From IMG/VR virus record IMGVR_UViG_3300033163_000174: a stretch of 20,000 nucleotides of DNA. One strand, given 5' to 3'. Positions within the stretch are counted from its first letter, which is position 1. Every line of letters starts with the position of its first letter. The DNA comes from an uncultured virus (IMG/VR IMGVR_UViG_3300033163_000174) (Duplodnaviria; Heunggongvirae; Uroviricota; Caudoviricetes). Of the stretch, positions 1 to 19,935 are shown piece by piece. The position numbers were made by a program, and so were the translations under genes. The notes beneath the pieces were generated by a model. That model was not told where the DNA came from and did no database searches. It saw only the letters and a program-made list of their open reading frames with translations.

Positions 1-1335
1 AAGTGCTCAGAGTGTAAAACCCTAGAAAAGCTAAACGGAATATATGAAATTAAGCTCTCCTATCCCCTACATTTAGAGAAGAAAAAGTATCTAAAGCCCT
101 TTAATATCATCAAAGCTGATGGACAGCTTTTTAGGATCTATCATGTGGAAAAAGACACACCCAGTAACCTTCTTAGGGTTAGTGGAAGGCATATCTTTTA
201 TGATCTTAATCATTATTTCATCGAAGATCGAAGGGCAGTAGATAAAAAGGCCATCGATGCTATGGAGATGGTTTTAGATGAAGCAGGTTTAACAGATATC
301 TATACCATTGAAAGCGATATTGAAGCATTAAACACCCAGTATTTTATTAGAAGGTCAGCTTCTCAGGCCATGTTTATGGTGTCTAATAGGTGGAAGGGTG
401 AGCTTTTCAGAGATAATTTTCATATAAAGATTAATGGAAGACACTTAAATGATAAAGGGGTTACTGTAGCCCATGGAAAAAACATCACCGGAATTAACGA
501 GAAGCTCAGTGCCGATGAGGTGCTAACAGGTATTTATCCTGTAGGGGCAGAAGGCTTAACCCTACCAGAGAAATATCTTATTAATGCCCAGTGGTCAGGC
601 GCAGATTATCCAGATTTTAAACTAATCAAGAGAGTAGACTTTAAAGAAGCCAAGGATGAAGAAAGCCTTAGACAAATGGCGGAGAACTACCTTTATGAAC
701 ATGCAGGCTTCGCAGTTAATTATCAAGTGGATTTTATCCAGCTTGAACACACCAAGGAGTATGAGGAATATAAGCCGCTTTTAAAAGTAAGCATTGGAGA
801 CACTGTAACCGTAAAGCATAAGCTTCTTGGTGTAGATTTTAAAATAAAAGTGATCTCCATTGAAAAGGACATCCTAAGATCTCAAAACACCAAAGTGGAA
901 CTAGGAAAACCTCTTTATACACTTGACCAGTACATTGAGGAATTTAAAGAAAATGTCGATGAAAACTTTCAAGAAGTGGATGAATCCATTGGTGGTATTA
1001 GGACTCAGCTAGATGATTTGGGAGTCTCTTATACCATTGTAAAAAATATAAGCATCGAAGAAAATATGATTCATGTCACCTATGAAGTGGAGAGGGGCAG
1101 CACCCATCAGTATCATGCGGATTATAGTTTTACCTTAGATGACTCAGGGCGTATGACCAGCATCACCCTTGAGGGAATATTTTCAGAGCTATTACTAAAA
1201 GAAGTATCCACCCTCATAGTGGATATGACAAGTTTCGATATTGTTTACGCTGATGGGAAAAAGGCAAAATACAACTTTACCACAGATAGTAGTGGCAGAA
1301 TTACAGCAATAGAAAAGGTATGGGAGGGGGAGTAA
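1..1335 (+). CDS. Phage tail / minor structural protein (prophage tail endopeptidase-like), 5'-partial
   Basis: The frame is open from base 1 (KCSECKTLEKLNGIYEIKLSYP...KADGQLFRIYHVE), so the ORF-track start at 145 is internal. Motifs typical of siphophage minor structural proteins: E-x-LNG-x-YE-x-x-L-x-YP, GQLFRI, GKNITG, T-x-IYP-x-G-x-EGL, L-x-x-x-x-IGDTV-x-V, VELG. Lies upstream of holin and endolysin. Confidence 0.85.
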   Translation, partial: KCSECKTLEKLNGIYEIKLSYPLHLEKKKYLKPFNIIKADGQLFRIYHVEKDTPSNLLRVSGRHIFYDLNHYFIEDRRAVDKKAIDAMEMVLDEAGLTDIYTIESDIEALNTQYFIRRSASQAMFMVSNRWKGELFRDNFHIKINGRHLNDKGVTVAHGKNITGINEKLSADEVLTGIYPVGAEGLTLPEKYLINAQWSGADYPDFKLIKRVDFKEAKDEESLRQMAENYLYEHAGFAVNYQVDFIQLEHTKEYEEYKPLLKVSIGDTVTVKHKLLGVDFKIKVISIEKDILRSQNTKVELGKPLYTLDQYIEEFKENVDENFQEVDESIGGIRTQLDDLGVSYTIVKNISIEENMIHVTYEVERGSTHQYHADYSFTLDDSGRMTSITLEGIFSELLLKEVSTLIVDMTSFDIVYADGKKAKYNFTTDSSGRITAIEKVWEGE

Positions 1336-1336
1336 A

Positions 1337-2407
1337 GTGACCTATCATGAAAGATTTAATAATACACTGGCCATATGGACAGCCTTTGGTGGTAGGGGAA
1401 ATCTTATTCTTCCTATCCCAACCTTAAAGTGGGAAAAACGCTATTATCATGATTTTGGATATCCTCAAACCGGCAGTGCTACAAGGATTGATGTTTTTGA
1501 TAATGGTCTGGCGCAAATTGCCGTGTACCGAGCTTCTAGTCCTAGAATGTCATATTTTAACCATCAAACGGGGCAGTGGACCATCGCCGATGTGCCTTGG
1601 TGGAATCATGGAATACCAGAAATTCTATGGGCGGGAGATGGTGTGTTTTTAGCTAGAATCGTAGGGCTTGCTAACATCATCGCTTCCTTTGACGGTATCA
1701 CCTGGCATAATGCAGGATTTTGTAGAGGTGCCCAAAACCATATGGAAACAGGGGCTTACGACATTACAAGGAATGTAGGAGTAGTAAGCTGGTGGTGGTA
1801 TAAGTCACCCGTCTATTACAGCTTTGATTCCCTTACGGAAAGAACAGAATGGACCCTTACAGGCTCTGATGGAAATTCTGTACCGATTTTTAAGTATATG
1901 ACTGCCCATAAAGGAAACTTTGTAGGGGTGGTTGGAGGAGATAAATCCATCGCTGTAGCAAGTTCTGCCACACCTTGGGCTTGGACTACTACCATTCCAG
2001 AAGATCCACTGGACCACAGGTATATGTATATTCGCTCTGTTAATAACAAACTCTTTGTCCACCGGTTTAGATACCATGGATCGCCGGGGAATTTTAGTGT
2101 TAATCTATGTGTTCTAAACGATAGCGCCACCCAGCTGATTGAGACCAATCTATCCCACTATGGAGATTTGGCAGATAATAGAGCGCCAAATCCTCAAAAT
2201 ATAGTATGGATGAAGGACTGGGGGAAATACGCCCTCTTTACTCAAAATATGCTGTACGCTTCAGCGGACGGGATTTACTGGGAAGGGGTAGAGCAGCCGG
2301 GGTTCTCACTTTCACCTCATGGGAATATGTTTGGTGGTGCTATTTATGTACCGGGAGATGGCTTCTACGTTAAGGGCAATGGGTTCGTTTTTTTTGGGGC
2401 TTATTAA
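1337..2407 (+). CDS. Putative phage tail-associated / receptor-binding protein with Asp-box (BNR) repeats, probable beta-propeller
   Basis: RBS GGAGGGG then GTG, 1 nt after the upstream stop. Trp/Tyr/Gly-rich; two S-x-D-G-x-x-W motifs (ASFDGITW, ASADGIYW). Position between tail gene and holin. Function is inferred. Confidence 0.55.
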   Translation: MTYHERFNNTLAIWTAFGGRGNLILPIPTLKWEKRYYHDFGYPQTGSATRIDVFDNGLAQIAVYRASSPRMSYFNHQTGQWTIADVPWWNHGIPEILWAGDGVFLARIVGLANIIASFDGITWHNAGFCRGAQNHMETGAYDITRNVGVVSWWWYKSPVYYSFDSLTERTEWTLTGSDGNSVPIFKYMTAHKGNFVGVVGGDKSIAVASSATPWAWTTTIPEDPLDHRYMYIRSVNNKLFVHRFRYHGSPGNFSVNLCVLNDSATQLIETNLSHYGDLADNRAPNPQNIVWMKDWGKYALFTQNMLYASADGIYWEGVEQPGFSLSPHGNMFGGAIYVPGDGFYVKGNGFVFFGAY

Positions 2408-2433
2408 TCACAACAACTTAAGAAAAAGATAAT

Positions 2434-2460
2434 GGCGTCCTTCGTGAGGACGTCTTTTTA
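2434..2460 (+). terminator. Intrinsic terminator after the tail genes
   Basis: Stem GGCGTCCT / AGGACGTC, loop TCGTG, followed by TTTTT. Confidence 0.7.
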
Positions 2461-2495
2461 ATAGATAAAACTTTTATGAAAGTGAGGGAAAGTAC

Positions 2496-2912
2496 ATGAG
2501 AGAAGTTTGGAATATTAGTCAGATGATATTTGCTGCCATCGGCGGATGGCTGGGCTGGTTTCTTGGAGGTTACGATGGGTTTTTATATGCTCTGATAGCT
2601 TTTGTGGTTATTGATTATATTACAGGTGTTCTTTGCTCAATTTTAGAAAAACACCTGTCCAGCGATGTAGGTGCTAGAGGGATTTTTAAGAAAGTAGTGA
2701 TTTTCTCTTTAGTAGGTGTGGCCCATATTATTGACCAGAACATCATCGGTGATGGCAGTGCCATTCGGACTGCAGTTATTTTCTTCTATTTATCCAATGA
2801 GGGAATCAGCATCATTGAAAATGCTACAAGGCTTGGACTACCTATACCTAAGAAACTGGTAGATGTTTTAGAACAGCTAAAAAGTGGAGGTGATAAGGAT
2901 GGCACTAAGTAA
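2496..2912 (+). CDS. Phage holin (toxin secretion/phage lysis holin, Phage_holin_4_1 type)
   Basis: 138 aa with several TM segments and family motifs GWFLGG-x-DG, IDYITG, LSS-x-VG-x-RGI-x-KK, FFYLSNEGISIIEN-x-x-x-LGLPIP. Overlaps the endolysin start. Confidence 0.93.
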   Translation: MREVWNISQMIFAAIGGWLGWFLGGYDGFLYALIAFVVIDYITGVLCSILEKHLSSDVGARGIFKKVVIFSLVGVAHIIDQNIIGDGSAIRTAVIFFYLSNEGISIIENATRLGLPIPKKLVDVLEQLKSGGDKDGTK

Positions 2913-3891
2913 TCTAAAAACAAAGTTCATGACCAGAAATGATTGCTATACAGCAGGAAGGAAAATTACTCCTAAAGGCATTATGATCCACTCCACAGCA
3001 ACACCTGGTGTAATGGCGGCTGCTTGGTTCAGTAGATGGAATAAGTCCTTTAGAGCCGGAGAGATTAACAGGCAGGTTTGTGTCCATGCCTTTTTAGACG
3101 ATAAAGAAATATGGCAGTACCTTCCTTGGAATCACAGGGGCTGGCATGCAGGTGGTGCTGCCAATAATAGTTATATAGGGATTGAAATCTGCGAGCCGAG
3201 AGGACACTCCTATCAAGGATCCACTATGGTGAACTATGATGTAAAAAAGAATGAAGCCTACTTTAGAGCTGCCTGGAAAAATGCAGTAGACTTATGTGTT
3301 TTTCTTTGTAAGGAATATGGTCTGACGGAGAAGGATATCATAGGTCACGCTGAAGGTCACAGGCAGGGTATAGCCAGCAATCATGCAGACCCCATGCACT
3401 GGTATCCAAAGCATGGTGAGAGTATGGATACCTTTAGGGCTGAAGTAAAGAAAGGTCTTACAACAGGTATTTCTATTGATAGTGAAGATGATCTAGAAGC
3501 TGGAGATATTGTAGAAATTAAAGCCTCAGCTAAACGCTATTATCCAAATGGGCCTATTATTCCAAATTGGGTGAAATGGAACTATCATTTAATCACTCAA
3601 GATAAGTCTGGCAATAGGCCGGTTATTAAAGGTGGAAAAGAATGTGTTCTCTTAGGTAGGACCATTCTTAAAAGTAACATGGATGAAAAAGATGGCATTA
3701 TGACCTGGGCAGATAAAGACATTTTAGATTTAGTGAGTAAAGGTGTAGAGGTAGAGCCTAAGCCTGAAACGAAAACTACTCAAAAGTTCTATCGGGTCCA
3801 GGTAGGGGCCTTTAGTAAAAAAGAGAATGCTAAGGCTCTAATGGATCGCCTTAAAAAGGCAGGATTTGATGCCTATATGAAATACGATTAA
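2899..3891 (+). CDS. Phage endolysin, N-acetylmuramoyl-L-alanine amidase (Amidase_2) with C-terminal SPOR-like domain
   Basis: IMIHSTA, VHAF-x-D, GWHAGG-x-AN-x-x-YIGIEICE, IIGH-x-E...NHADP. C-terminal YRVQVGAFSKKENA...LKKAGFDAY. Start placed at ATG 2899 behind RBS GGAGGTG rather than GTG 2884. Confidence 0.92.
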   Translation: MALSNLKTKFMTRNDCYTAGRKITPKGIMIHSTATPGVMAAAWFSRWNKSFRAGEINRQVCVHAFLDDKEIWQYLPWNHRGWHAGGAANNSYIGIEICEPRGHSYQGSTMVNYDVKKNEAYFRAAWKNAVDLCVFLCKEYGLTEKDIIGHAEGHRQGIASNHADPMHWYPKHGESMDTFRAEVKKGLTTGISIDSEDDLEAGDIVEIKASAKRYYPNGPIIPNWVKWNYHLITQDKSGNRPVIKGGKECVLLGRTILKSNMDEKDGIMTWADKDILDLVSKGVEVEPKPETKTTQKFYRVQVGAFSKKENAKALMDRLKKAGFDAYMKYD

Positions 3892-3978: not shown

Positions 3979-4058
3979 ACTTGCATTATCCGAGCAGATA
4001 AGTGATATATACTATGACGCCAATACCCTGAACCCTTTATTTATGGGCGTTTCAGGGT
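3979..4058 (+). promoter_or_regulatory. Upstream regulatory motif of recombinase unit 1 (ACTTGCATTATC plus downstream inverted repeat)
   Basis: ACTTGCATTATC (3979-3990) recurs identically at 7514-7525. Followed by an AT-rich -10-like region and the IR ACCCTGAA...TTCAGGGT (4025-4058). Confidence 0.5.
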
Positions 4059-4138: not shown

Positions 4139-5767
4139 GTGGAAACCAATACTACAGAACGCATGATAGATACAGATGATGGAATCTTTAGATATGGACC
4201 TTCTAGGACAAGATCCAGTGAGTTTAGTTATGGGAATTTAGCAATCGACAGTCAAAGGCTTAGAGTGGCTTCTTATTGCAGGGTAAGTACAGAAGAAGAA
4301 CTGCAGATGAATTCTTTGGACAACCAAATTGTCCACTACACCAATTACATCCGCTCCAACCCACAGTGGCAGTTTGCTGGTATCTTTTCAGACCGAGGAA
4401 AATCAGGAACAATGATGGAGAGCCGAGCAGGATTTAATAAAATGATTCGCTACGCAATGGCTGGAAAGATTGATTTGATTATCTGTAAATCCATCTCAAG
4501 GTTTGCAAGAAATGTGATGGATACCTTGAAAGTAGTAAGAGACCTTAAAGAGAGAAATATTTTTGTACTATTCGAGAAAGAAAATTTTCATACGGGAGAT
4601 ATGCAGAGTGAATTCATCCTTACCATGCTTGCTGCAACGGCTCAGGAAGAAAGCCGAAGTATATCAGAAAATATTAGCTGGGCAACATCAAAACGTTTTG
4701 AACAGGGAGAAGCCAGATTTGCAAGAATCCTAGGCTACAAAAAGATAAAAGGAAAGCCCTGGGTCATTGACGAAAGAGAAGCTTCAACAGTGAGAGAAAT
4801 CTTTAGACAATACTTAGAGGGTAAGACACCTACGGAAATTGCAAATTATTTGATACGCAACAATTATGTAAAAGTAAATGGTAGAAGAGACTGGACCAAT
4901 GTGGCCATTATATCCATCCTTAGAAATGAAAAATATGTGGGAGATGTTCTTTGCCAAAAGACATACACAGAAGATTATCTAACCCATAAAACACGAGTGA
5001 ATCAAGGAGAAAAAACCCAGTACCTTATCCAAAATAATCATGAAAGAATCATTGATAGGGAGACATTTGATAAAGTCCAAAAGATGCTTAAGCCAAAATC
5101 TAAGGGTGTTAAGCGAGGGCCGAGTAAACGGTATGATTTAACGGGAAGAGTTGCTTGCTCAGAGTGTGGCGCTAACTTTCACCGTTACAAAACCAGAGGT
5201 TATGTTACATGGCGCTGTAGCAATCGCAGGAAAAGCACTCGACTATGTAAAATGACAAGTGTTGGGGAAGAAATTCTATTAAAGGTACTTAAACAAGCCT
5301 TTATAGAAAAGCATGAAATCGACCCTAAGAGTTCAGGAAAAAGGCAGATTATAAAGCTGATGAAAAACCTACAAAATACAGATGTATTAAGAGATGGAGA
5401 ACAGAACCGCTTAAGGCTTGAACTTGAAAAAGCCCTCTTTGCTGAAAGTATGGCTGTGCTGGATAATAAAGATGAAAAAGAACTAAAAGACCACAGAGAA
5501 GCTATCGAAAAAACCATAGCAGAAAAAGAAGTATGGTGGAGATTGGTTGATGCAGATGACCCTTATAGAAAAGAAGCACTAGAAGAGCTAGCGAAAATAA
5601 AAGATGCTGCTAATCCCTTAACGGAACTGTATAAAAAGCTGGATAATATTAAATTCTTAAGAGCCTGGATGACACGCATAGAAGCGAAGTCATCTTTTTT
5701 ATTTTCCATCACATGGGTGAGCGGTGAGGAAACAGAAGTTGAAGCCAGTGAAGGAGGAGATGATTAA
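4139..5767 (+). CDS. Large serine recombinase, type A copy 1 (resolvase catalytic + recombinase + zinc ribbon)
   Basis: RBS AAAGGAGG + GTG. Catalytic YCRVST, D-x-G-x-SGT...R-x-GF, KSISRFARN, AQEESRSISENI, LGY, ILRNEKY-x-GD, HE-x-II; zinc ribbon CSECG...WRC...C. Confidence 0.95.
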   Translation: METNTTERMIDTDDGIFRYGPSRTRSSEFSYGNLAIDSQRLRVASYCRVSTEEELQMNSLDNQIVHYTNYIRSNPQWQFAGIFSDRGKSGTMMESRAGFNKMIRYAMAGKIDLIICKSISRFARNVMDTLKVVRDLKERNIFVLFEKENFHTGDMQSEFILTMLAATAQEESRSISENISWATSKRFEQGEARFARILGYKKIKGKPWVIDEREASTVREIFRQYLEGKTPTEIANYLIRNNYVKVNGRRDWTNVAIISILRNEKYVGDVLCQKTYTEDYLTHKTRVNQGEKTQYLIQNNHERIIDRETFDKVQKMLKPKSKGVKRGPSKRYDLTGRVACSECGANFHRYKTRGYVTWRCSNRRKSTRLCKMTSVGEEILLKVLKQAFIEKHEIDPKSSGKRQIIKLMKNLQNTDVLRDGEQNRLRLELEKALFAESMAVLDNKDEKELKDHREAIEKTIAEKEVWWRLVDADDPYRKEALEELAKIKDAANPLTELYKKLDNIKFLRAWMTRIEAKSSFLFSITWVSGEETEVEASEGGDD

Positions 5768-7452
5768 TGAACACAGGGCAAATAGAGAGAGCGCCAACAG
5801 CTAGAGTTAGGGTAATTCCAGCTAGGACAAGGACCCCTAGAGATGAAGAACACTTTGATGGCCAAAAGAAGCGAATCGGCGTTTATGTACGTGTATCAAC
5901 AGATTCAGCCATGCAGGCCACCAGTTATGACATTCAAGTATCCTACTTTAAAGAATATGTAGAGAAAAATCCAAACTGGCAGCTTGTAGAAATCTTTGCA
6001 GACGAAGGCTTGTCAGGCACCTCAACAAAAAACCGTGTTGAATTTAACCGAATGATTGAAAGGTGTAAAAACAAGGAAATCGACTATATCATAACCAAGT
6101 CCATCAGTAGATTCGCTAGGAATACCCTAGACTGCCTTCACTACATTAGAATGCTTAAAAATCTAGGCATTGGGATATTTTTCCAAAAAGAAAATCTCGA
6201 TACATTGGACAGTAAGAGTGAATTATTTTTGACGATTTTATCATCGATGGCTCAGGAAGAGTCCCGCTCCATTTCTGAAAACACCAAGTGGGGAGTACAG
6301 AAAAGGTTCCAACAAGGGAAAGCTCATATCCCCACCACCTACTTTCTAGGCTACACAGAGGATGAAGATGGGAACATTATTATCGATGAAAAACAGGCTA
6401 AGGTTGTAAGGCGAATATACAAAGAACTCCTTGAAGGTAAGGGGACACCAACCATTGCCAAGGGGCTGATGAAAGATAAGATTAGAACCGCCAGAAACAA
6501 GAAAACCTGGACTTCTGATGCTGTTCTCAAGATCCTTAAAAACGAAAAGTACAAAGGCGACTGCTTAGCACAAAAGACCGTAACCGTAGATTATCTCACC
6601 CATGAAAGGGTCAGAAACAAAGAGCACCAGCCTCAGTACTATATAAGAAATCACCACCCAGCAATCATCAGCGAGGAAGACTGGGAAAAGGTCCAGGAAG
6701 AACTGACAAGACGTAACAAGATGCTAAGGGATCCAGATAATAAATACAGCATGACTTACAGCGGAGCGGCACCTTTTTCAAACAAGCTCTTTTGTGGGGA
6801 GTGCGGAAGGCCAGTTACTAGAAGGAGGCTTACCACCCACTTTGGAGAAGAGAGGATTCCAGCTAAGTTTACTGCTTGGCACTGCAGGGCAGCTTCCAAG
6901 AGAGACAAAGAGTTTACAGATTGTAGCTGTAGTTATATTTGGGAAGAAGAACTAGAAAAAGCTTTTATGAAATTACTCTTTGATATTAAGAAAGATAAAA
7001 ACCGTCTACTGAAAGATGTTGAGCTTGCTATCGAGGAAGCCTCATTAACAGAAGAGGAAGAACGTAGGCTAAATGAACTAGGCATTCAAATAGAAAGAAT
7101 TGCTGATAAAATAACGGAAATGGCAACGAGAGCTTCAGGAGGAAATGAAGTTGTTTATGAAGCTACTATGAGACACATGATCTATGAGCAGGAAATCCTA
7201 CAGATGGAGTACGATGGGCTAAATGAAAATAAAAAAGAAAGCGAATATCTAAAAGAGAATATTAAAATCTTACTTGAAGATTTAGAAAAAATAGAAGGCC
7301 AAGAGGAACCCTTTAATGAAGAACTTTTTAAGAGGACCGTAGAAAGGGGAACGGTATTTGCGAAGTGGCAGGTAGAGCTTCACTTAAAATGCGGAGTCTC
7401 CTACAAGGTATCTGTTAAAAGAAGACCACAAAGGAGCAAAAAGGAAAAATAA
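5767..7452 (+). CDS. Large serine recombinase, type B copy 1
   Basis: ATG overlaps the upstream TAA (TAATG), RBS AAGGAGG. RVRVIPA N-terminus, YVRVST, DEGLSGT...R-x-EF, KSISRFARN, AQEESRSISEN, LKNEKYKGD, HHPAII, CGECG...WHC...C, coiled-coil C-terminus. Confidence 0.95.
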   Translation: MNTGQIERAPTARVRVIPARTRTPRDEEHFDGQKKRIGVYVRVSTDSAMQATSYDIQVSYFKEYVEKNPNWQLVEIFADEGLSGTSTKNRVEFNRMIERCKNKEIDYIITKSISRFARNTLDCLHYIRMLKNLGIGIFFQKENLDTLDSKSELFLTILSSMAQEESRSISENTKWGVQKRFQQGKAHIPTTYFLGYTEDEDGNIIIDEKQAKVVRRIYKELLEGKGTPTIAKGLMKDKIRTARNKKTWTSDAVLKILKNEKYKGDCLAQKTVTVDYLTHERVRNKEHQPQYYIRNHHPAIISEEDWEKVQEELTRRNKMLRDPDNKYSMTYSGAAPFSNKLFCGECGRPVTRRRLTTHFGEERIPAKFTAWHCRAASKRDKEFTDCSCSYIWEEELEKAFMKLLFDIKKDKNRLLKDVELAIEEASLTEEEERRLNELGIQIERIADKITEMATRASGGNEVVYEATMRHMIYEQEILQMEYDGLNENKKESEYLKENIKILLEDLEKIEGQEEPFNEELFKRTVERGTVFAKWQVELHLKCGVSYKVSVKRRPQRSKKEK

Positions 7453-7513
7453 CCCCAAAAAGAATAGAAAAAAGTAAGTAAATGAAAATAACTTCTTTCA
7501 TACCAGAGATAGT

Positions 7514-7568
7514 ACTTGCATTATCTTTGGACTAGAGCCATTAATAACATACCTGCTATTTTAGCAGG
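7514..7568 (+). promoter_or_regulatory. Upstream regulatory motif of recombinase unit 2
   Basis: ACTTGCATTATC (7514-7525), identical to 3979-3990, followed by the IR CCTGCTA-TTT-TAGCAGG (7552-7568) just before RBS AAAGGAG. Confidence 0.5.
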
Positions 7569-7595
7569 ATCGCTCTAGAGAAAGGAGTTTTTATT

Positions 7596-10500
7596 TTGGA
7601 AAGAAAAACAGTGGAAGTGCTGTGGCCTTCAGTGAAGGAAGAGACAGTTGAGAAAAAAAGTGAAAAGTTAAGGGTTGCTGCCTATTGTAGGGCGAGCGAT
7701 ATTTATGGCGATGACAAAAGGAGTTCTTTAGAAAACCAGATGGATTATTACTCAAAGTACATCCTCCAACATGAAGATTATAAACTGGTAGGCATTTACT
7801 ACGATAGTGGCGTTTCAGGCATGACTGTACAAAAAAGACCTGGATTTAAAAGACTTATTAGACATTGCCTTGAAGGCCGAATTGATGTAGTAATAACAAA
7901 GAGCATCTCAAGGTTTTCTAGAAACTCCAAAGATTTGCTTGAAACTGTAGAGTTATTAAAAGAACATAATATTACTGTAATATTCGAGAAAGAAAAAATT
8001 GACTCCATGAAAACAAGGAACAAGTTTTTTCTTACAGCGTTATCAGCTGTTTATCAGCAAGAGTCATTAGAGATATCAGCAAATAATAAATTGAGTGCTG
8101 AAAACAGGAATAAAATGGGCAGACCGATTTTCCGAAACCAGTATGGTTATCGAGTGGTTGAAATTGATGGAAGGAAGACTTTTGAGATTGTTGATGAAGA
8201 AGCAAGGGCGATTAAATATATATACAAAAGATTTCTTGAAGGTAACAGTACAACAAAAATTGCATTAGAACTCACAGAAAGTGGTATTAGAACGCCATCT
8301 GGCAATGAAATATGGCGAGGTACAAGCATTAAAAATATCCTTACGAACAACAATTATTTGGGGGACCGGTTAACCAATGAGTATGTAAGTTTGTTAATGG
8401 AAAGAAGATACATTCGCAATGAAGGGCAGGAAAATCGGTATTATATTAAGAATACTCATCCTGCTATTATTGATGAAGAAGCATTTCATAAGGTGCAAGA
8501 AATGTTAGAAAGTAAGCAAGTGACCAGTAAACCTCCTATGAAGAATTATCCACTTTCAAAGAGAATAATATGTGCTTACTGTGGATGGCCATATTACCAT
8601 AGCGAAAAAAGAAATAAACATCGTTGGAAATGCGGCTTAAAGGGTGAGCATGCTACTTTATGTGAGTCAAACTCTTTAGTGGAAACGACACTAAATGAAA
8701 TGATGAAGCGGGCCTTGGATGAAAGATATGATTTTCAGAAACCAGGTGCTCTCAAACGATTAAAACAGGATCTTGAACGCCTTAATAATAACGACCGGTT
8801 TGAACTTCATCGGATGAGCAATTTGATGAGTCTACTATCAGCAAAGGAAGAGTTGGCCATTTCAGAAGGAATAGAGAGAGACCTATTGATAGCAAAGGTG
8901 GAAAAAATAGAAAGTGAAATTCTAGCCTTTGAAGATTTAGCTTCAAAGATTGAAGAAGATAGAGTGTACAGAGAAAATGCCGTAGAAATGATTGTAAAGA
9001 GCAAGACTTTAGAAGACTTTATTAAGTCTTTAGACGCATCAATTCTACGGGCTTGGATTATGGAAATTAGTGTATTGACTAAGAATGATTTTAAAGTAAG
9101 GTGGTTAGATGATTCCTACGAAGAACTGGGTGACTATATTTCCATTAAGGAGAAAAGAAGTTTTAAGCTTAGCGAATCAAAAAAACAAAAGGCAGGAATA
9201 AGTATTTTTAGAGAAGTTGATAAAGAGCCTATCGAAGATAAAAAGACTGAGAAAAGAGATGATGAAAGGAGGAGTGAAGAAGTGGAAATCATCGAGATTC
9301 AAAATAAACCTTCCACAGAACTTATAGATAAAATAAAGAAAAAATATAAAGAGAGCGCCACAGACATTTTAAAAATAGAACCGAAAAAAACTAAGAAGAA
9401 AACTAGGGTAGGGGTATATGCAAGAGTCAGCACCAGAGAACCAGATCAATTGGGGTCCTTAGAAGCTCAGGTCGCTTATTATACTTTTGCTTTGCTAAAG
9501 GACCCAAATAATCAGTTAGTGAGGATCTATGCAGACGAAGGTGTTTCAGGCACCAATGCAAAAAAACGATCAGGATTTCAGAAAATGATTAAAGACTGCG
9601 AAAATGGGAAAATCGATAGGATAGTAACTAAATCAATATCAAGGTTTGCTAGGAATACTGTCGATGCCTTAGAGTATGTCAGAAAGTTAAAAGAGTATAA
9701 AGTTTCCATCTATTTTGAGAAAGAAGGAATCGATACGGCAAAAGAAGACGGAGAAGTGCTTTTAACTGTGTACAGTGCCTTAGCTCAAGAAGAATCAAGA
9801 AGCCTTGGGGAGAGTATTTCTTGGGGTAAAAAGGCACTGGCTAAAAGAGGCATAGTAAGACATAATGCCAGAACTTATGGCTACGATTTCAATAAAGACC
9901 GGAGTTGGTACATTGTTGAAGAAGAGGCGAAAGTAGTTAGATCGATCTTTGAGCGGTATATAAATGGAATAAGGACACCTCAGATTAGCAGGGATTTAAC
10001 GATAGAAGGAATACCGACTATGAAGGAGGGATCTTCGTGGGATGCAAAGAGGATAAGTACTATACTCAATAACATAAGTTATACAGGAGACCTTCTCTAT
10101 CAGAAAAACTATACAAAGGATACTTTTACAAGCAGATCAAAACAGAACTTTGGTGAGGTCCCCCAGCTATTGATTGAAGATCACCACCCTGCGATTGTTG
10201 ATAAAGCAATTTGGTATAAAGCGCAAAGTATCATGGAGAAAAGAAGAAATCCTAAAACGAATAGCAAAAGAAGTCATGATAAGGAAGAATTCTTTTCAAG
10301 GTTTATTTGCTCGAATTGTGGAAATTTTTATGCCCATGTGCTTTTGGTAACAAAACATAAGTGGAGATGCAAAGCTTCTTTAAAGAAAGAACCATTAGCT
10401 TGTTGCGATGCTGGATATATTGAAGAACCGGAGATTATAAAACAATTTATGAAAATGCTAATTGAATGTAAAAAAGACAGTAGTTTTAAATCTCTTATCG

Positions 10501-10895
10501 AAGAAAAAATTGAAGAAAAAAGTTTAACAAGAAATGAAAAACAGCTATTGTCTTATTTGGAGGAAGAGATTCAAAAGAGATATCAAGAGCTATACAAAGT
10601 AGTGGAGGCTGGAGGAAAATCAGGGGAAGATACTGTAGAAATTAAAAAGCATACAGACGGAATAATGGCAGTACAAGATAAAATTAATGAGATTATAGAT
10701 AAAGAGGATGAGTATAAATTCCTTGTAGAGGAGAAGGAATGGCTCATGAAAGAGCTAGATAACCTTCCTGATAAGAAGAAATTGGATTATAGAAATGACA
10801 TCTTCAAAAGAATAATAAAAGACGGTGTCATTTCATCTGATAACATTATTACTTTTAATCTAATATTTGGCATATCCAAAACTGCCAGCAAATAG
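7596..10895 (+). CDS. Tandem double large serine recombinase (type A-type B fusion), 1099 aa
   Basis: RBS AAAGGAG + TTG. Two complete LSR modules. N-half: YCRASD, DSGVSG...RPGF, KSISRFSRN, THPAII, CAYCG...WKC. C-half: YARVST, DEGVSGT...RSGF, KSISRFARN, AQEESRS, HHPAIV, CSNCG...WRC. Joined by a Lys/Glu-rich linker. Confidence 0.93.
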   Translation: MERKTVEVLWPSVKEETVEKKSEKLRVAAYCRASDIYGDDKRSSLENQMDYYSKYILQHEDYKLVGIYYDSGVSGMTVQKRPGFKRLIRHCLEGRIDVVITKSISRFSRNSKDLLETVELLKEHNITVIFEKEKIDSMKTRNKFFLTALSAVYQQESLEISANNKLSAENRNKMGRPIFRNQYGYRVVEIDGRKTFEIVDEEARAIKYIYKRFLEGNSTTKIALELTESGIRTPSGNEIWRGTSIKNILTNNNYLGDRLTNEYVSLLMERRYIRNEGQENRYYIKNTHPAIIDEEAFHKVQEMLESKQVTSKPPMKNYPLSKRIICAYCGWPYYHSEKRNKHRWKCGLKGEHATLCESNSLVETTLNEMMKRALDERYDFQKPGALKRLKQDLERLNNNDRFELHRMSNLMSLLSAKEELAISEGIERDLLIAKVEKIESEILAFEDLASKIEEDRVYRENAVEMIVKSKTLEDFIKSLDASILRAWIMEISVLTKNDFKVRWLDDSYEELGDYISIKEKRSFKLSESKKQKAGISIFREVDKEPIEDKKTEKRDDERRSEEVEIIEIQNKPSTELIDKIKKKYKESATDILKIEPKKTKKKTRVGVYARVSTREPDQLGSLEAQVAYYTFALLKDPNNQLVRIYADEGVSGTNAKKRSGFQKMIKDCENGKIDRIVTKSISRFARNTVDALEYVRKLKEYKVSIYFEKEGIDTAKEDGEVLLTVYSALAQEESRSLGESISWGKKALAKRGIVRHNARTYGYDFNKDRSWYIVEEEAKVVRSIFERYINGIRTPQISRDLTIEGIPTMKEGSSWDAKRISTILNNISYTGDLLYQKNYTKDTFTSRSKQNFGEVPQLLIEDHHPAIVDKAIWYKAQSIMEKRRNPKTNSKRSHDKEEFFSRFICSNCGNFYAHVLLVTKHKWRCKASLKKEPLACCDAGYIEEPEIIKQFMKMLIECKKDSSFKSLIEEKIEEKSLTRNEKQLLSYLEEEIQKRYQELYKVVEAGGKSGEDTVEIKKHTDGIMAVQDKINEIIDKEDEYKFLVEEKEWLMKELDNLPDKKKLDYRNDIFKRIIKDGVISSDNIITFNLIFGISKTASK
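9282..10895 (+). CDS. Putative internally initiated, in-frame type B recombinase isoform (537 aa) of the fused gene
   Basis: AAAGGAGG at 9265-9272, then GTG at 9282 in frame with 7596 (offset 1686 nt), at the start of the second module (VEIIEIQ...). Mirrors the RBS/start at the 5767 junction. Independent translation is inferred. Confidence 0.55.
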   Translation: MEIIEIQNKPSTELIDKIKKKYKESATDILKIEPKKTKKKTRVGVYARVSTREPDQLGSLEAQVAYYTFALLKDPNNQLVRIYADEGVSGTNAKKRSGFQKMIKDCENGKIDRIVTKSISRFARNTVDALEYVRKLKEYKVSIYFEKEGIDTAKEDGEVLLTVYSALAQEESRSLGESISWGKKALAKRGIVRHNARTYGYDFNKDRSWYIVEEEAKVVRSIFERYINGIRTPQISRDLTIEGIPTMKEGSSWDAKRISTILNNISYTGDLLYQKNYTKDTFTSRSKQNFGEVPQLLIEDHHPAIVDKAIWYKAQSIMEKRRNPKTNSKRSHDKEEFFSRFICSNCGNFYAHVLLVTKHKWRCKASLKKEPLACCDAGYIEEPEIIKQFMKMLIECKKDSSFKSLIEEKIEEKSLTRNEKQLLSYLEEEIQKRYQELYKVVEAGGKSGEDTVEIKKHTDGIMAVQDKINEIIDKEDEYKFLVEEKEWLMKELDNLPDKKKLDYRNDIFKRIIKDGVISSDNIITFNLIFGISKTASK

Positions 10896-10905
10896 TCAAA
10901 ACTAA

Positions 10906-10959
10906 AACCCACTGAGTCGCCTGATAGAAGTCATCAAGCTACTTGGTGGGTTATTTTTT
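10906..10959 (+). terminator. Long imperfect hairpin / terminator after the recombinase cluster
   Basis: AACCCACTGAGT-CGCCTGAT / ATCAAGCT-ACTTGGTGGGTT around loop AGAAGTC, followed by ATTTTTT. Confidence 0.7.
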
Positions 10960-11017
10960 ATTTCAAACAAACGGAGCGAAAACGGAAATGGTTCCGAATG
11001 TTGGATGGTTAATCACT

Positions 11018-11169
11018 TTTTAATAATGGAACGATTTTCTTTACAAATAGAGAATAACGTGCTAAAATTAAAAAAAGATGAATATTGGCGTTAGAAACGG
11101 GCATAATGTTTTAATAATGGAACGTTATTCTTTGAATATGGAGAAAAACATTCCAAAAGTAAAAAAAGA
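11018..11169 (+). repeat. Two 61-bp direct repeats (11018-11078, 11109-11169), each an imperfect palindrome; probable AbiEi operators
   Basis: TTTTAATAATGGAACGATTTTCTTTACAAATAGAGAATAACGTGCTAAAATTAAAAAAAGA vs TTTTAATAATGGAACGTTATTCTTTGAATATGGAGAAAAACATTCCAAAAGTAAAAAAAGA; 50/61 identical by manual alignment. Half-site consensus GGAACGTTATTCT / AGAATAACGTTCC. Confidence 0.85.
11040..11068 (+). promoter_or_regulatory. Sigma-A promoter of the abiE operon
   Basis: -35 TTTACA (11040-11045), 17-nt spacer, extended -10 TG-c-TAAAAT (11063-11068), embedded in the first palindromic repeat. Confidence 0.75.
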
Positions 11170-11179
11170 GGTGAGGAAC

Positions 11180-11944
11180 GTGAATGTCTATACTGAACTA
11201 GCGAAATATCCTGTTTTCTCCATAGAAGATGTTAAGAAGCTTACTGGAAATGAGAAAACAGCTTATTCTCAGATGGACCGTCTAATGAAAAAGGGGCTTG
11301 TCAAAAAGATACGAAAAAATATCTACTCTGTAGTCAATCCAACAACAGGACAGGTAGTAGCTACTCGATATCAAATAGCCTGTGCCATAACTGACACTGC
11401 CTATATCTCTCACCACAGTGCCTTTGAATATTATGGCCTAGCGAATCAAGTGTATTATGAGGTCTATGTTTCATCAGAAAATAAGTTTAATCATTTTGAA
11501 TATGATAATGTAACCTACAAATATGTCGCTTCTAGAATGCAAGATGGAGTAGTGGAAGCTAAAAATACCACCGGTGTTAGAATGACAGATTTAGAGAGAA
11601 CTGTGGTGGACAGCATAAGAGATTTCAATAAAATAGGCGGCTTTGAAGAGCTGCTCAATTGCCTAGAAGGAATCCATTACCTAGATGAAAAAAAGCTAAA
11701 ACACTATCTTTCTATATATGATACCCAGGGGCTTTATCAAAGAGTAGGATATCTTTTGGACCATTACAGAAAAGAGATGCAGCTTTCAACAGAGTTTATA
11801 GATTATTGTAAAAGCAAGATAGGAAAGAGTAGAAGGTACCTGGTTAGTGATTTAAAAGAAGAAAGCTATTATAACAACGAGTGGGAACTGATGGTACCGG
11901 AAGGGCTATTTGAAATAAATCAAGGAGGCGATATACTTGTCTAA
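11180..11944 (+). CDS. abiEi: Type IV toxin-antitoxin antitoxin / transcriptional regulator, AbiEi family
   Basis: N-terminal wHTH-like L-x-KKG-x-V-x-KIRKNIY, AYISHHSAFEYYGL-x-x-Q, TDLERTVVD, QRVGYLL. Start moved to GTG 11180 (RBS GAGGTGAGG) because the track start at 11078 lies within the operator repeats. Overlaps the toxin start. Confidence 0.88.
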   Translation: MNVYTELAKYPVFSIEDVKKLTGNEKTAYSQMDRLMKKGLVKKIRKNIYSVVNPTTGQVVATRYQIACAITDTAYISHHSAFEYYGLANQVYYEVYVSSENKFNHFEYDNVTYKYVASRMQDGVVEAKNTTGVRMTDLERTVVDSIRDFNKIGGFEELLNCLEGIHYLDEKKLKHYLSIYDTQGLYQRVGYLLDHYRKEMQLSTEFIDYCKSKIGKSRRYLVSDLKEESYYNNEWELMVPEGLFEINQGGDILV

Positions 11945-12878
11945 TTACGATATTATATATTTAGGGAAAAAAGCAGAGGAGCTTGGCTTTGTCAGGGATA
12001 CATTAGAAAAGGTGACAAGACTTGCAGATATTTTGGAGTATCTTAATACAAATCCAATCTTAAAGGATAGTCTCGCATTAAAGGGTGGGACTGCCATAAA
12101 TCTTACCATTTTTAATTTACCCCGTCTCTCGGTAGATATAGATTTGGATTATTTAATTACCAACAGCAGAGAAGAAATGCTTGAGAGCAGAGAAGTCATT
12201 AACACTACCATTGATCGCTATATGGTCTCCCAGGGATATTCAAAAAATCCTAAGACGAAGAATCCCCATAGCCTTGATTCTTGGGTTTATGATTACCTGG
12301 GAGCCAGTGGGAATAGAGATAACATTAAAATTGAAATCAACTACTCTCTGAGATCTCATGTACTTGAAGCCGAGGAAAGACCAATCATCACTGAGCATTT
12401 CTCAAGTGAATACAAGGTGAAGTCCTTAGCTCCAATTGAGATATATGGAAGTAAGATAAATGCACTATTAAGTAGAGCTGCAGCTAGAGATTTATATGAT
12501 GCTAGAAATATGATCCACTTTGGGCTGTTTGACGAATCGGAAGAAGAATTGCTGAGAAAGTGCGTTGTATTCTATGCTGCAGTATCTGCTAAAGACATTA
12601 ATAAGACCTTTGACACCAAGGCTATAGATTCCATCACCCAAAGAAAAATTAAAACGGATCTCCTTCCAGTAATTAAAAGAAAAGATGATTTTGAGCTGGA
12701 ATCAGCTAAGAAGCTTGTCAAAGAGTACATTTCTGATTTGATGGTTCTTACAAAGGAAGAGAAGGAATTCCTGGATAGATTTGAAAATGGAGAATACGCT
12801 CCTGAACTCTTATTTGATGATAAAGAGATTCTGGACCGTATAAAGAATCATCCGATGGCCATATGGAAAACTAGATAA
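11937..12878 (+). CDS. abiEii: Nucleotidyltransferase toxin, AbiEii/AbiGii family
   Basis: RBS AAGGAGG + TTG. LALKGGTAINL...PRLSVDIDLD (pol-beta NTase motif), IKIEIN, K-x-x-ALL-x-R-x-x-x-RDLYD. Confidence 0.92.
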   Translation: MSNYDIIYLGKKAEELGFVRDTLEKVTRLADILEYLNTNPILKDSLALKGGTAINLTIFNLPRLSVDIDLDYLITNSREEMLESREVINTTIDRYMVSQGYSKNPKTKNPHSLDSWVYDYLGASGNRDNIKIEINYSLRSHVLEAEERPIITEHFSSEYKVKSLAPIEIYGSKINALLSRAAARDLYDARNMIHFGLFDESEEELLRKCVVFYAAVSAKDINKTFDTKAIDSITQRKIKTDLLPVIKRKDDFELESAKKLVKEYISDLMVLTKEEKEFLDRFENGEYAPELLFDDKEILDRIKNHPMAIWKTR

Positions 12879-12884
12879 ATCATG

Positions 12885-12956
12885 TAACCCGCCTAGATAG
12901 AATCTAGCTTCGGAAAAATGCCGAGCTTAGAGAGCATCTGAGCGGGTTATTTATTT
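12885..12956 (+). terminator. Long imperfect hairpin / terminator after abiEii
   Basis: Outer stem TAACCCGC / GCGGGTTA, inner stem AGCTTCGG / CCGAGCT, followed by TTTATTT. Confidence 0.65.
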
Positions 12957-12959
12957 GCT

Positions 12960-13043
12960 TATATAATAGAAGGAACTTGAAACTTAAGTACATATATAAT
13001 AGAAGAAACTCCAAATTCAAATCACTATATAATAGAAGGAACT
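12960..13043 (+). repeat. Three 18-bp direct repeats TATATAATAGAAG(G/A)AACT at exact 33-bp period
   Basis: Copies at 12960-12977, 12993-13010 and 13026-13043, separated by 15-bp spacers TGAAACTTAAGTACA and CCAAATTCAAATCAC. Confidence 0.9.
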
Positions 13044-13132
13044 CGTTTATACATGCTGATGTATAAGCATTTTAGAAGAACAAAACTAAAATAAGAAACG
13101 CTCAATAAAGAGTATATATGAATCAAGATTAC

Positions 13133-13164
13133 AGCTCATCGCATTGTGGTGGGCTTATTTTTTT
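13133..13164 (+). terminator. Orphan intrinsic-terminator-like hairpin
   Basis: AGCTCATCGC-ATT-GTGGTGGGCT (several G-U pairs) followed by TATTTTTTT. No ORF lies directly upstream. Confidence 0.5.
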
Positions 13165-13521
13165 GTGCTTTTTTTGAGGAATTTCAAGATAGAGGCCTTT
13201 ATTCGGGAGCATATAGCATAGTCAGAGCAGCAAAATCGGAATAAAAATGTACTAATTGGCTCTGGGTTATCCTTCTCGTATCATGGCGACGTGAGTATGG
13301 TGAAAGGATAAAGAGGCTGTAAGGTAGTAATAGCAAGGGTTTCAGCATAACTACCAAATGTACTAATGTTACAGAACCATTGCACGTAGTCTCATTCAAT
13401 CAAAGCATACATTTATGCAAGATATAGTGTCGAATCAAGCGCGAAACACTACATATAGATTAAGAAAATCAAGGTGTTCTACACACCACAAACATACATA
13501 ACCGAAGCAGGAGGAACTAAC

Positions 13522-19680: not shown

Positions 19681-19935
19681 GTGAAGAAGGATAGTTTTTT
19701 TATAGGGCAATTAATTGCGTTATTTTTTGTTGCTTCAATACTTATTATAATGAATGATTATATTGAACTAGGGTTGGTTATTACTGGTATATTAAGCTTA
19801 TTGATATTGCTCTGGAGTAAGCATGTAATTGGTAATTATACTAATGCAACAGTCATGTTTATTGCTTTTAATATTTTTTATTTGATAGGAAAGTTCTACT
19901 TTTCTATCAAAGACATTTTAGAATCAAAAAAATAA
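19681..19935 (+). pseudogene. Short hydrophobic ORF, probable truncated polysaccharide polymerase (Wzy-like) N-terminus
   Basis: RBS GGAGGTG + GTG. About three TM segments, then an early stop; the other two + frames also close by about 19995. The position after GTs in an EPS locus fits wzy, but the identity is inferred. Confidence 0.4.

Follow-up and report, generated by a model that had tools for sequence, protein, structure and literature searches.

Four large serine recombinase modules in three genes of a temperate prophage, with a duplicated pair fused in one protein

Serine integrases are leading tools for large DNA insertion; as currently understood, a single protein acts four times, on sites that are nearly palindromic. 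Why should one phage encode four different modules of this kind? The question is raised by a 20,000-nucleotide stretch of DNA from an uncultured tailed virus (Caudoviricetes; IMG/VR record IMGVR_UViG_3300033163_000174), here termed the window. Between positions 4139 and 10895 three open reading frames (ORFs) encode four complete large serine recombinase (LSR) modules: A, B and a 1099-residue A′–B′ fusion (7596–10895). The locus reads as the integration module of a temperate tailed prophage of approximately 57.6 kb. Are all four modules genuine LSRs? Is the fused gene real, and how did it arise? Where does the element insert, and do the modules act together?

Four modules in three genes

The module comprises the following parts.

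4139–5767, plus strand: LSR A (A1), 542 residues, catalytic Ser50; assigned by Pfam and by the A clade of the tree (support 99)
5767–7452, plus strand: LSR B (B1), 561 residues, catalytic Ser44; assigned by Pfam and by the B clade (support 100)
7596–9149, plus strand: module A′ (A2), residues 1–518 of the fused gene, catalytic Ser34; assigned by Pfam, alignment, tree and AlphaFold2
9150–9392, plus strand: linker of the fused gene, residues 519–599, charged and disordered (predicted local distance difference test score, pLDDT, below 50)
9393–10895, plus strand: module B′ (B2), residues 600–1099 of the fused gene, catalytic Ser612; assigned by Pfam, alignment, tree and AlphaFold2

All long ORFs of the window lie on the plus strand. 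The stop codon of A and the start codon of B share one nucleotide (TGATG), and B is translationally coupled to A. Pfam assigns the Resolvase, Recombinase and Zn_ribbon_recom families to A (5e-32, 6.6e-24 and 2.9e-9, respectively) and to B (5.8e-36, 1.7e-24 and 1.2e-11). The 1099-residue ORF matches Resolvase (8.8e-62) and Recombinase (1.4e-43) in two stretches each. PF00239 is present in 4 of 4 modules and PF07508 occurs four times, so each module has the domain content of an LSR. The zinc ribbon, PF13408, is reported by Pfam for A, B and A′. In B′ the ribbon cysteines (C905, C908, C925 and C937) are invariant in a 46-sequence alignment and AlphaFold2 models the strands.

A sequence-only reading of this DNA had picked out the catalytic motifs YCRVS, YVRVS, YCRAS and YARVS and had sorted the modules into two types by C-terminal motifs. 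These were DDPYRKEALE / EDRVYRENAVE and FLRAWMTRIE..ITW / ILRAWIMEIS..VRW for type A, with FNEELFKRTVERG..LKCGVS / YRNDIFKRIIKDG..LIFGIS for type B. All are found in the translations. The four modules share 33–39% pairwise identity over their first 320–390 residues or so, which cover the catalytic, recombinase and zinc-ribbon parts. The typing is real because only A1 with A2 (494 residues) and B1 with B2 (519 residues) can be aligned through the C-terminal coiled-coil and tail.

The relationships were examined with a tree of 99 modules (IQ-TREE quick mode, LG+G4) built on the catalytic, recombinase and zinc-ribbon core, the type-defining tails being excluded. Eighteen outgroup rows were chosen from about 80 other LSRs in the loci and the remainder omitted for speed. 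The A singles (support 99) join the fused N-halves (99) with a support of 95, and the B singles (100) join the fused C-halves (99) with 85. Forcing the A and B singles into one clade costs 76.5 log-likelihood units and is rejected (approximately unbiased test, p-AU 0.0007). The expected clustering, A with A′ and B with B′, is recovered without help from the tails. The same groupings appear in the N-half and C-half subtrees, which argues for one duplication of an A–B pair followed by one fusion. A and B are the most conserved modules and their catalytic serines are invariant (Ser50 in 7 of 7 A proteins, Ser44 in 9 of 9 B proteins). Pfam, the C-terminal alignment and the tree bear out the architecture first proposed, A, B, [A-B], that is a duplicated A+B pair with the second copy fused.

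The fused form was sought among proteins of 604–1924 residues, giving 111 matches among 8000 scored candidates. Forty-five are full-length, two-module homologues of 1061–1346 residues, from 98% down to 30% identity, and they include proteins from named Bacillota isolates (Heliorestis, Solibacillus, Alkalihalophilus and Bacillus timonensis). In the fused alignment Tyr30, Arg32 and Ser34 of the first module and Tyr608, Arg610 and Ser612 of the second are invariant (46 of 46 sequences), together with eight zinc-ribbon cysteines. The linker is charged and in open frame, with a length of 41–103 residues (median 70). The AlphaFold2 model based on this alignment has a mean pLDDT of 76.4 and a predicted template modelling score (pTM) of 0.47, and consists of two complete LSR folds with a disordered segment at 519–599. 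Long helical hairpins, 402–454 and 979–1055, are predicted to be the coiled-coil insert of the zinc-ribbon domain. The closest structural matches are full-length complexes of integrases with attachment (att) sites, PDB codes 9y66, 9dxh, 9tep, 9iu2 and 4kis, among them phiC31 and Bxb1. On every feature of sequence and fold considered the four modules are LSRs; they are predicted to catalyse attP × attB recombination, a reaction for which junction sequences were observed.

Might the 1099-residue ORF be an artefact, or a recent, pseudogene-like read-through due to a lost stop codon or an assembly error, the true state being four separate genes? The closest relative, the genome G014, has precisely such genes. 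Its A′ (520 residues, with a stop codon) and B′ (537 residues, with a Shine-Dalgarno sequence and GTG start) are on two contigs. However, this split is caused by a multi-copy insertion sequence of approximately 1.77 kb (8–9 copies), and the A′ of G014 nests within the fused-N clade. The insertion sequence takes the place of window positions 9150–9265. Both break flanks are present 8–9 times in that genome, and they belong to the insertion sequence since both lie on one 1.77-kb contig (C81). The separate genes of G014 are best regarded as a secondary state. In addition to the 45 homologues with open linkers, independent contigs confirm the frame. The 1099-residue protein is on record at 98% identity from another source (P0004), and in an independent metagenome run a single contig spans 3963–9657, linker included, at approximately 97% identity; the in-frame fusion therefore does not depend on the assembly. 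We consider the artefact explanation extremely improbable and, as far as sequence can show, already refuted. The fusion is ancient and widespread, not local, and the evidence points to its having arisen once, long ago, from a duplicated A–B pair.

In a separate locus, L013 (G017:C147, 3900–6935, minus strand), an A-like gene (491 residues) and a B-like gene (518 residues) are divided by a single TAG, read-through of which would give a 1019-residue frame. The arrangement resembles an intermediate between pair and fusion, or a broken fusion.

The gene order is also conserved across genomes, a point that the sequence-only reading had proposed to check. Complete or near-complete A, B, [A′-B′] sets occur in at least 14 loci from Clostridia, Bacilli and Heliobacteria-type genomes. 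These are the window, the loci L009, L018, L023, L027, L029, L035 and L039 (three of these seven have a local frameshift, stop or contig end), three IMG/VR contigs, G042:C7, G044:C50 and G044:C55. Two further triplets are decayed (L019, and one in G045 with a split B). Of 11 triplets, eight have A and B overlapping or no more than 6 nt apart; the remaining three overlap by 14–89 nt when the earliest possible start is taken. The spacer between B and the fused gene measures 67–163 bp in 11 of 11 triplets; end motifs and junctions were looked for in it and none is there. The fused gene is accordingly not a separate insertion with its own att sites between 7452 and 7596, the scenario that the earlier reading had named as contrary to its proposal. 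Where upstream sequence is available, 28 of 29 fused genes follow B or a truncated B, the sole exception being itself 5′-truncated. In 4 of 4 genomes annotated upstream (the window, G014, R. andreesenii and the IMG/VR contig L187) the triplet is directly 3′ of tail and lysis (holin, amidase) genes.

A phage collection of 50,697 records gave 713 matches, each mapping both halves of the query on one single LSR gene of approximately 1.5 kb, and no fused form. A scan of metagenome contigs, for which the search pattern was too general, gave at least 80 loci, each matching no more strongly than a single LSR would. Another kind of three-gene set, common in metagenome-assembled genomes of Clostridia, consists of an LSR of about 520 residues, a protein of about 290 residues and an LSR of about 540 residues. 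The middle protein has a partial recombinase domain and lacks the catalytic domain. This kind occurs in L034, L037, L041–L047, L053, L063 and others, and falls outside the A and B clades.

Three short elements flank the genes.

3979–3991, plus strand: 13-mer ACTTGCATTATCC, upstream of gene A, read from the sequence
7514–7526, plus strand: ACTTGCATTATCT, which nearly repeats the 13-mer, within the 143 bp that separate B from the fused gene, read from the sequence
10931–10949, plus strand: terminator-like hairpin 3′ of the fused gene, in a stretch of about 100 bp that also follows two other fused genes of G014

The 13-mer is possibly an operator or promoter element. A consensus promoter scan found 33 matches, with 26.6 ± 5 expected by chance, and so no excess. 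The conserved 100 bp or so after the fused genes had been suspected as an att site; the stretch reads as a terminator and the idea was rejected.

The prophage end, its targets and arrays in relatives

Where does the element end, and what does it enter? The features concerned are as follows.

12960–13043, plus strand: TATATAATAGAAGRAACT, present three times with a period of 33 and conserved in different genera close to right ends
13267–13289, plus strand: prophage right end (att arm), TTATCC-N6-GTATCATGG-CGA; homology with G014 stops at 13289
13290–13363, plus strand: host side of the junction, CGTGAGTATGG..., a conserved leader some 185 bp ahead of a sugar-transferase gene and also present in unoccupied copies

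The window and G014, which represent different genera, are homologous from 4573 to 13289 with 90–96% identity, and both copies end ...TTATCCTTCTCGTATCATGGCGA. Beyond this point the window continues into the leader upstream of the sugar-transferase gene, G014 into the interior of ugd. Since the two elements sit in different host sequences, the same proteins define no single strict target. Unoccupied sites, in the host's own paralogue (C71) and in the congener G002, read ...ATTCGA/CGTGAGTATG, with the stroke at the junction, and one contig of the independent run X16 crosses the junction up to 13312. Scans with Rfam and for tRNA found nothing, so the target is not an RNA gene. The host side, 13290–13363, is a 75-nt leader conserved in the paralogous locus (79%) and in the congener (86%). 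It matches no Rfam family and may be a regulatory leader of polysaccharide operons.

An arm of the form TTATCY-N7-(ATCATGG or CTCACGG) is present at the end of every unit in the relatives. The strict pattern occurs five times in the 4.07-Mb host genome, only once beside LSR genes. In Niallia and Paenibacillus the terminal unit is in comM, so that two units of the LSR family seen in the window occupy this gene at its His-His-Gly codons. Comparison of the intact Niallia comM with the occupied copy shows ATCATGGG to be common to phage arm and target; the proximal half of the motif is therefore the common core and TTATCY is specific to the phage. Of 14 distinct TATATAATAGAAGRAACT sites in 281 kb, 13 precede a right-end motif of the same strand by 46–307 nt.

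Searches for the left end covered several places. Only one of eight triplets (L027) has the end motif in inverted orientation close to where gene A begins, and contig C13 of the host genome, which carries the prophage, holds no second copy. Neither the 5′ part of ugd in G014 nor, on the Niallia contig, that of comM was found. In Niallia (G041) the array-side 3′ part of comM and the next gene (C4) form a 93% copy of the intact comM locus on C93; the 5′ part is lacking, so array and flank may have moved together.

Such arrays are a feature of the family. In five genomes one complete triplet is followed on the same strand by two to four further units, each made up of a 5′-truncated B, a fused gene and small cargo, and up to five fused genes are held in one array. 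Among 17 truncated genes examined, 15 are directly preceded by a full end arm and one (L027:13142) by the core half only. Before the remaining gene lies one end of a 14.3-kb satellite, which has a tyrosine integrase, primase and capsid gene of its own. A relaxed arm pattern gave 21 matches downstream of fused genes, of which L017:16570 and L033:14990 were dropped (deviating core, bordering nothing). The 19 retained adjoin an LSR gene in 14 cases and non-LSR DNA in five. The cuts fall at B residues 119–122 (three), 132 (one), 146 (two), 168 (two), 256 (two) and 268–275 (four); one of the cuts at residue 146 is in the G014 homologue of the window's own A. Cut position follows the clade to which the incoming element's fused gene belongs (4/4, 2/2, 2/2 and 2/2). 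The 268–275 group represents separate events because four different B genes were hit, 92, 64, 55 and 57% identical to references. The target sites in LSR genes resemble the core, for example GTATCTCATGGGG at the S-I-S-W-G codons.

The cargo of the arrays is mostly concerned with defence or toxin–antitoxin functions. Pfam families were assigned to 13 of 28 ORFs, with Abi_2 and RAMA found twice and ToxN, SocA/Panacea, AAA_21 and Schlafen/AlbA_2 also represented.

How do arrays form? A model of nested insertion is disfavoured, since stacked remnants of A plus the 5′ part of B are absent upstream in 3 of 3 long-contig genomes (G041, G043 and G045). In a cassette model small circles would exchange the 3′ part of B. 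Comparison of Niallia with R. andreesenii, however, shows the phage, A and 5′ B side to be 72–76% identical and the displaced units 91%. These values favour integration of whole phages in the LSR gene of a resident, with subsequent loss of the left part of the resident, over small self-mobile cassettes.

The satellite noted above, resembling a phage-inducible chromosomal island, occupies a B gene of R. andreesenii (G045, C2:~11,060–25,350; L100/L101) at F-E-K-E codons and is flanked by an 8-bp repeat, TTCGAGAA. It encodes the tyrosine integrase, an NrS-1-type primase/D5 helicase, a phage capsid protein and a helix-turn-helix (HTH) protein. LSR genes are therefore also targets of unrelated mobile elements.

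These observations bear on the notion that the three genes are redundant or independent recombinases, gathered by nested or tandem insertion and with no joint function. Relatives do accrete heavily at exactly the same place, and insertions into LSR genes do occur: the satellite, an insertion sequence and possibly the element of run X16 at 9657/9658. Against this, the order, spacing and co-phylogeny of A, B, [A′-B′] are conserved across Bacillota classes, and no triplet has an end motif or junction between its three genes. Junctions are always within a gene, never at 7452–7596. We judge simple accretion improbable.

In run X16, derived independently from wastewater, contigs break in B′ at 9657/9658, at the codons R-N-T-V-D/A, and the loose right end (..CCGTCTACTCGAC) is similar to the end arm of L027. 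Another element, or an insertion sequence, may have entered the fused gene in part of the population. Runs X13 and X22 hold parts of the module only, at low depth, and give no evidence either way.

Mechanism and known systems

Do the four modules act together? We lean, with moderate confidence, towards an integration module in which four modules form one set, the fusion arose once and a fully heteromeric enzyme is the most likely mechanism. An A:B heterodimer would occupy one att site and the covalent A′–B′ 'single-chain dimer' the other, so that each of the four half-sites would be read by its own module. Such an arrangement would account for att arms that are not palindromic. The phage arm comprises TTATCY, N7 and the core, with the core (ATCATGG or CTCACGG) common to arm and target. 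The heteromer is the best reading on four grounds: A and B are tightly coupled, their paralogues were fused long ago, the serines of all four modules are conserved and the arm is not symmetric. The match between cut position and fused-gene clade, and the diverged fused gene of run X12 described below, also count in its favour. The sequence data show the domain content, the conserved catalytic residues, the phylogeny, how old and widespread the fusion is, the gene order and the right-end arm with its junctions. We infer the physical association of A with B, the assignment of pairs to sites and the control of directionality; for the obligate A:B heteromer, and for a division of integration and excision between the two pairs, which the sequence-only reading had put forward as a possibility, the grounds are Rosetta-stone logic, tight gene coupling and co-phylogeny.

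A more elaborate version is tentative. Here A:B would read the conserved phage site while A′–B′ serves as an exchangeable reader of the target. Members would habitually integrate into core-like codons in the integrase genes of resident relatives, disabling the resident integrase and leaving arrays of defence cassettes, each with an intact fused integrase.

Several observations weigh against the heteromer. The support joining the B singles to the fused C-halves is only 85. The window linker contains an in-frame Shine-Dalgarno-like AAGGAGGAG (9266–9274) followed by GTG (9282–9284, residue 563), and a Shine-Dalgarno sequence with a start codon is found inside the linker in 10 of 19 fused genes. 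B′ may therefore also be made on its own, and the fusion may be less important than it appears. Elements of 90–96% identity occupy different host sites, the sugar-transferase leader and ugd. With the left end (attL, or P′ arm) not found in the searches described, the proposed non-palindromic attP rests on one arm. Displaced units in every case keep the fused gene, with A gone and B cut, and the fused gene may consequently not need A or an intact B. Finally, the host genome is metagenome-assembled (4.07 Mb, 91.8% complete, 217 contigs).

The displaced units lend themselves to a different explanation, namely that the fused protein is a self-sufficient integrase, a single-chain dimer of which two copies make the tetramer, leaving A and B for excision, a second target or control. 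That the class of target follows the clade of the fused gene is in keeping with this, as is the variation of the fused gene in run X12 where A and B are constant. However, no element integrated without an A and a B of its own, so target tracking cannot be pinned on the fusion. Also against it are the unvarying catalytic serines of A and B, which are better conserved than the other modules, and the presence of B or a truncated B before 28 of 29 fused genes. We consider self-sufficiency unlikely, though less so than accretion.

In run X12 one 3618-bp contig joins the flanks of the fused gene (window 7528–11080). Identity falls below 88% over the greater part of the contig's interior, in contrast to A, B and AbiE, which are 96–97% identical to the window. 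The fused gene of this run is a swapped or strongly diverged allele, a pattern that fits the fused gene as a swappable, site-reading part.

How does the heteromeric reading compare with known systems? In SCCmec, the methicillin-resistance cassette of staphylococci, CcrA and CcrB are both needed for movement of the element. Like the window, it has adjacent genes for two paralogous LSRs in one operon of a mobile element, presumed to act together. The module described here differs in comprising two pairs, one of them joined covalently, in its phage carrier and in its targets. Its proteins do not belong to the Ccr family. CcrB is the best Ccr model for all four modules, yet the scores are far below the NCBIfam equivalog cut-offs: 126–206 bits against 900 for CcrB, 66–117 against 700 for CcrA and 87–169 against 900 for CcrC. 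The same applies to XisF, the excision recombinase of the fdxN element (98–168 bits against 375).

Classical phage serine integrases are homotetramers of one protein that act with a directionality factor. The modules share fold, domain order and a gene position beside the phage end with the phiC31, Bxb1, Listeria A118/LI and SPbeta integrases, and short att arms with distal and proximal motifs are a further likeness. The difference is the use of four distinct modules.

Closer in gene number are integrative and conjugative elements (ICEs) of Streptococcus. Ambroset et al. (2016, PMC4701971) describe triplets of adjacent serine integrase genes that cluster by position, implying an ancestral multi-gene module made by duplication, and that insert inside genes, including traG of another ICE. 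Compared by description, those triplets consist of three single-module genes on conjugative elements, whereas here the third gene has two modules, giving four in total, and the carrier is a prophage.

Islands may accumulate at a single target gene, with displaced fragments left behind, the ssrA islands of Dehalococcoides (PMC3146451) being an example. The arrays resemble such tRNA/tmRNA islands and comM-targeting elements, being tandem with each unit ending at a fragment of the target gene. Here, by contrast, the gene that is hit repeatedly encodes the recombinase of a resident member of the same family. With respect to the linker, an engineered covalent fusion of an integrase with its recombination directionality factor (PMC5737554) likewise places the partners on a flexible linker; the fusion described here is natural, ancient and carries two catalytic recombinase modules. 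A full-text literature search, with subscription journals outside it, found triplets and Ccr pairs described and no fused two-module LSR.

If the heteromeric reading is correct, asymmetric sites could be recognised one half-site at a time, exchange of a single gene might redirect the choice of target, and the rotation mechanism would tolerate single-chain dimers. A conserved kit in many soil and gut bacteria hints that integrases of the type used in genome engineering can act as mixed teams. The arrays in relatives suggest that anti-phage defence genes collect at prophage ends by a route not recognised so far, and that integrase genes are themselves hot spots of integration.

The carrier prophage and its cargo

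The prophage extends on contig C13 from approximately 6.3 kb to 63,908, the latter corresponding to the right end at 13289 of the window. The left boundary is placed at about C13:6204–6950 by gene content only. The remaining features, by Pfam unless stated otherwise, are listed below.

C13, up to 6204: host polysaccharide genes, by gene content
C13, phage genes up to the window: SMODS-domain protein, HTH and M78-peptidase proteins, antirepressor, single-stranded DNA-binding protein (SSB), VapE-type primase, SNF2 helicase, methylases, terminase, portal, ClpP, capsid and tape measure
1–3891, plus strand: right arm of the prophage body; the order matches that before the LSR triplet in G014 and R. 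andreesenii
1–1335, plus strand: tail endopeptidase
1337–2407, plus strand: ORF with no assigned function
2496–2912, plus strand: holin
2884–3891, plus strand: amidase with SPOR domain
11078–11944, plus strand: AbiEi, cargo, first of a pair (PADLOC 1.8e-106)
11937–12878, plus strand: AbiEii, cargo (PADLOC 1.1e-126; PF08843, 5.5e-25)
From 13474, plus strand: polysaccharide-synthesis genes

The cargo at 11078–12878 has the composition of an AbiE system, an AbiEi antitoxin-like regulator followed by an AbiEii nucleotidyltransferase (abortive-infection or type IV toxin–antitoxin pair). The pair accompanies the LSR genes in G014 with 96% identity. At the distal end of the window, 19874–19927, the last 54 or so contig bases recur at several other contig ends and represent an assembly repeat; the final 73 window bases derive from another contig (C190).

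Elsewhere in the prophage, outside the window, are further defence-like genes, a SMODS nucleotidyltransferase near the left end (G000:C13:6951–7844) and a second AbiEii (35619–36542). A direct repeat of approximately 61 bp, with 82% identity between copies at 11018–11078 and 11109–11169, is positioned upstream of and overlapping the AbiEi start, and is present in G014 too.

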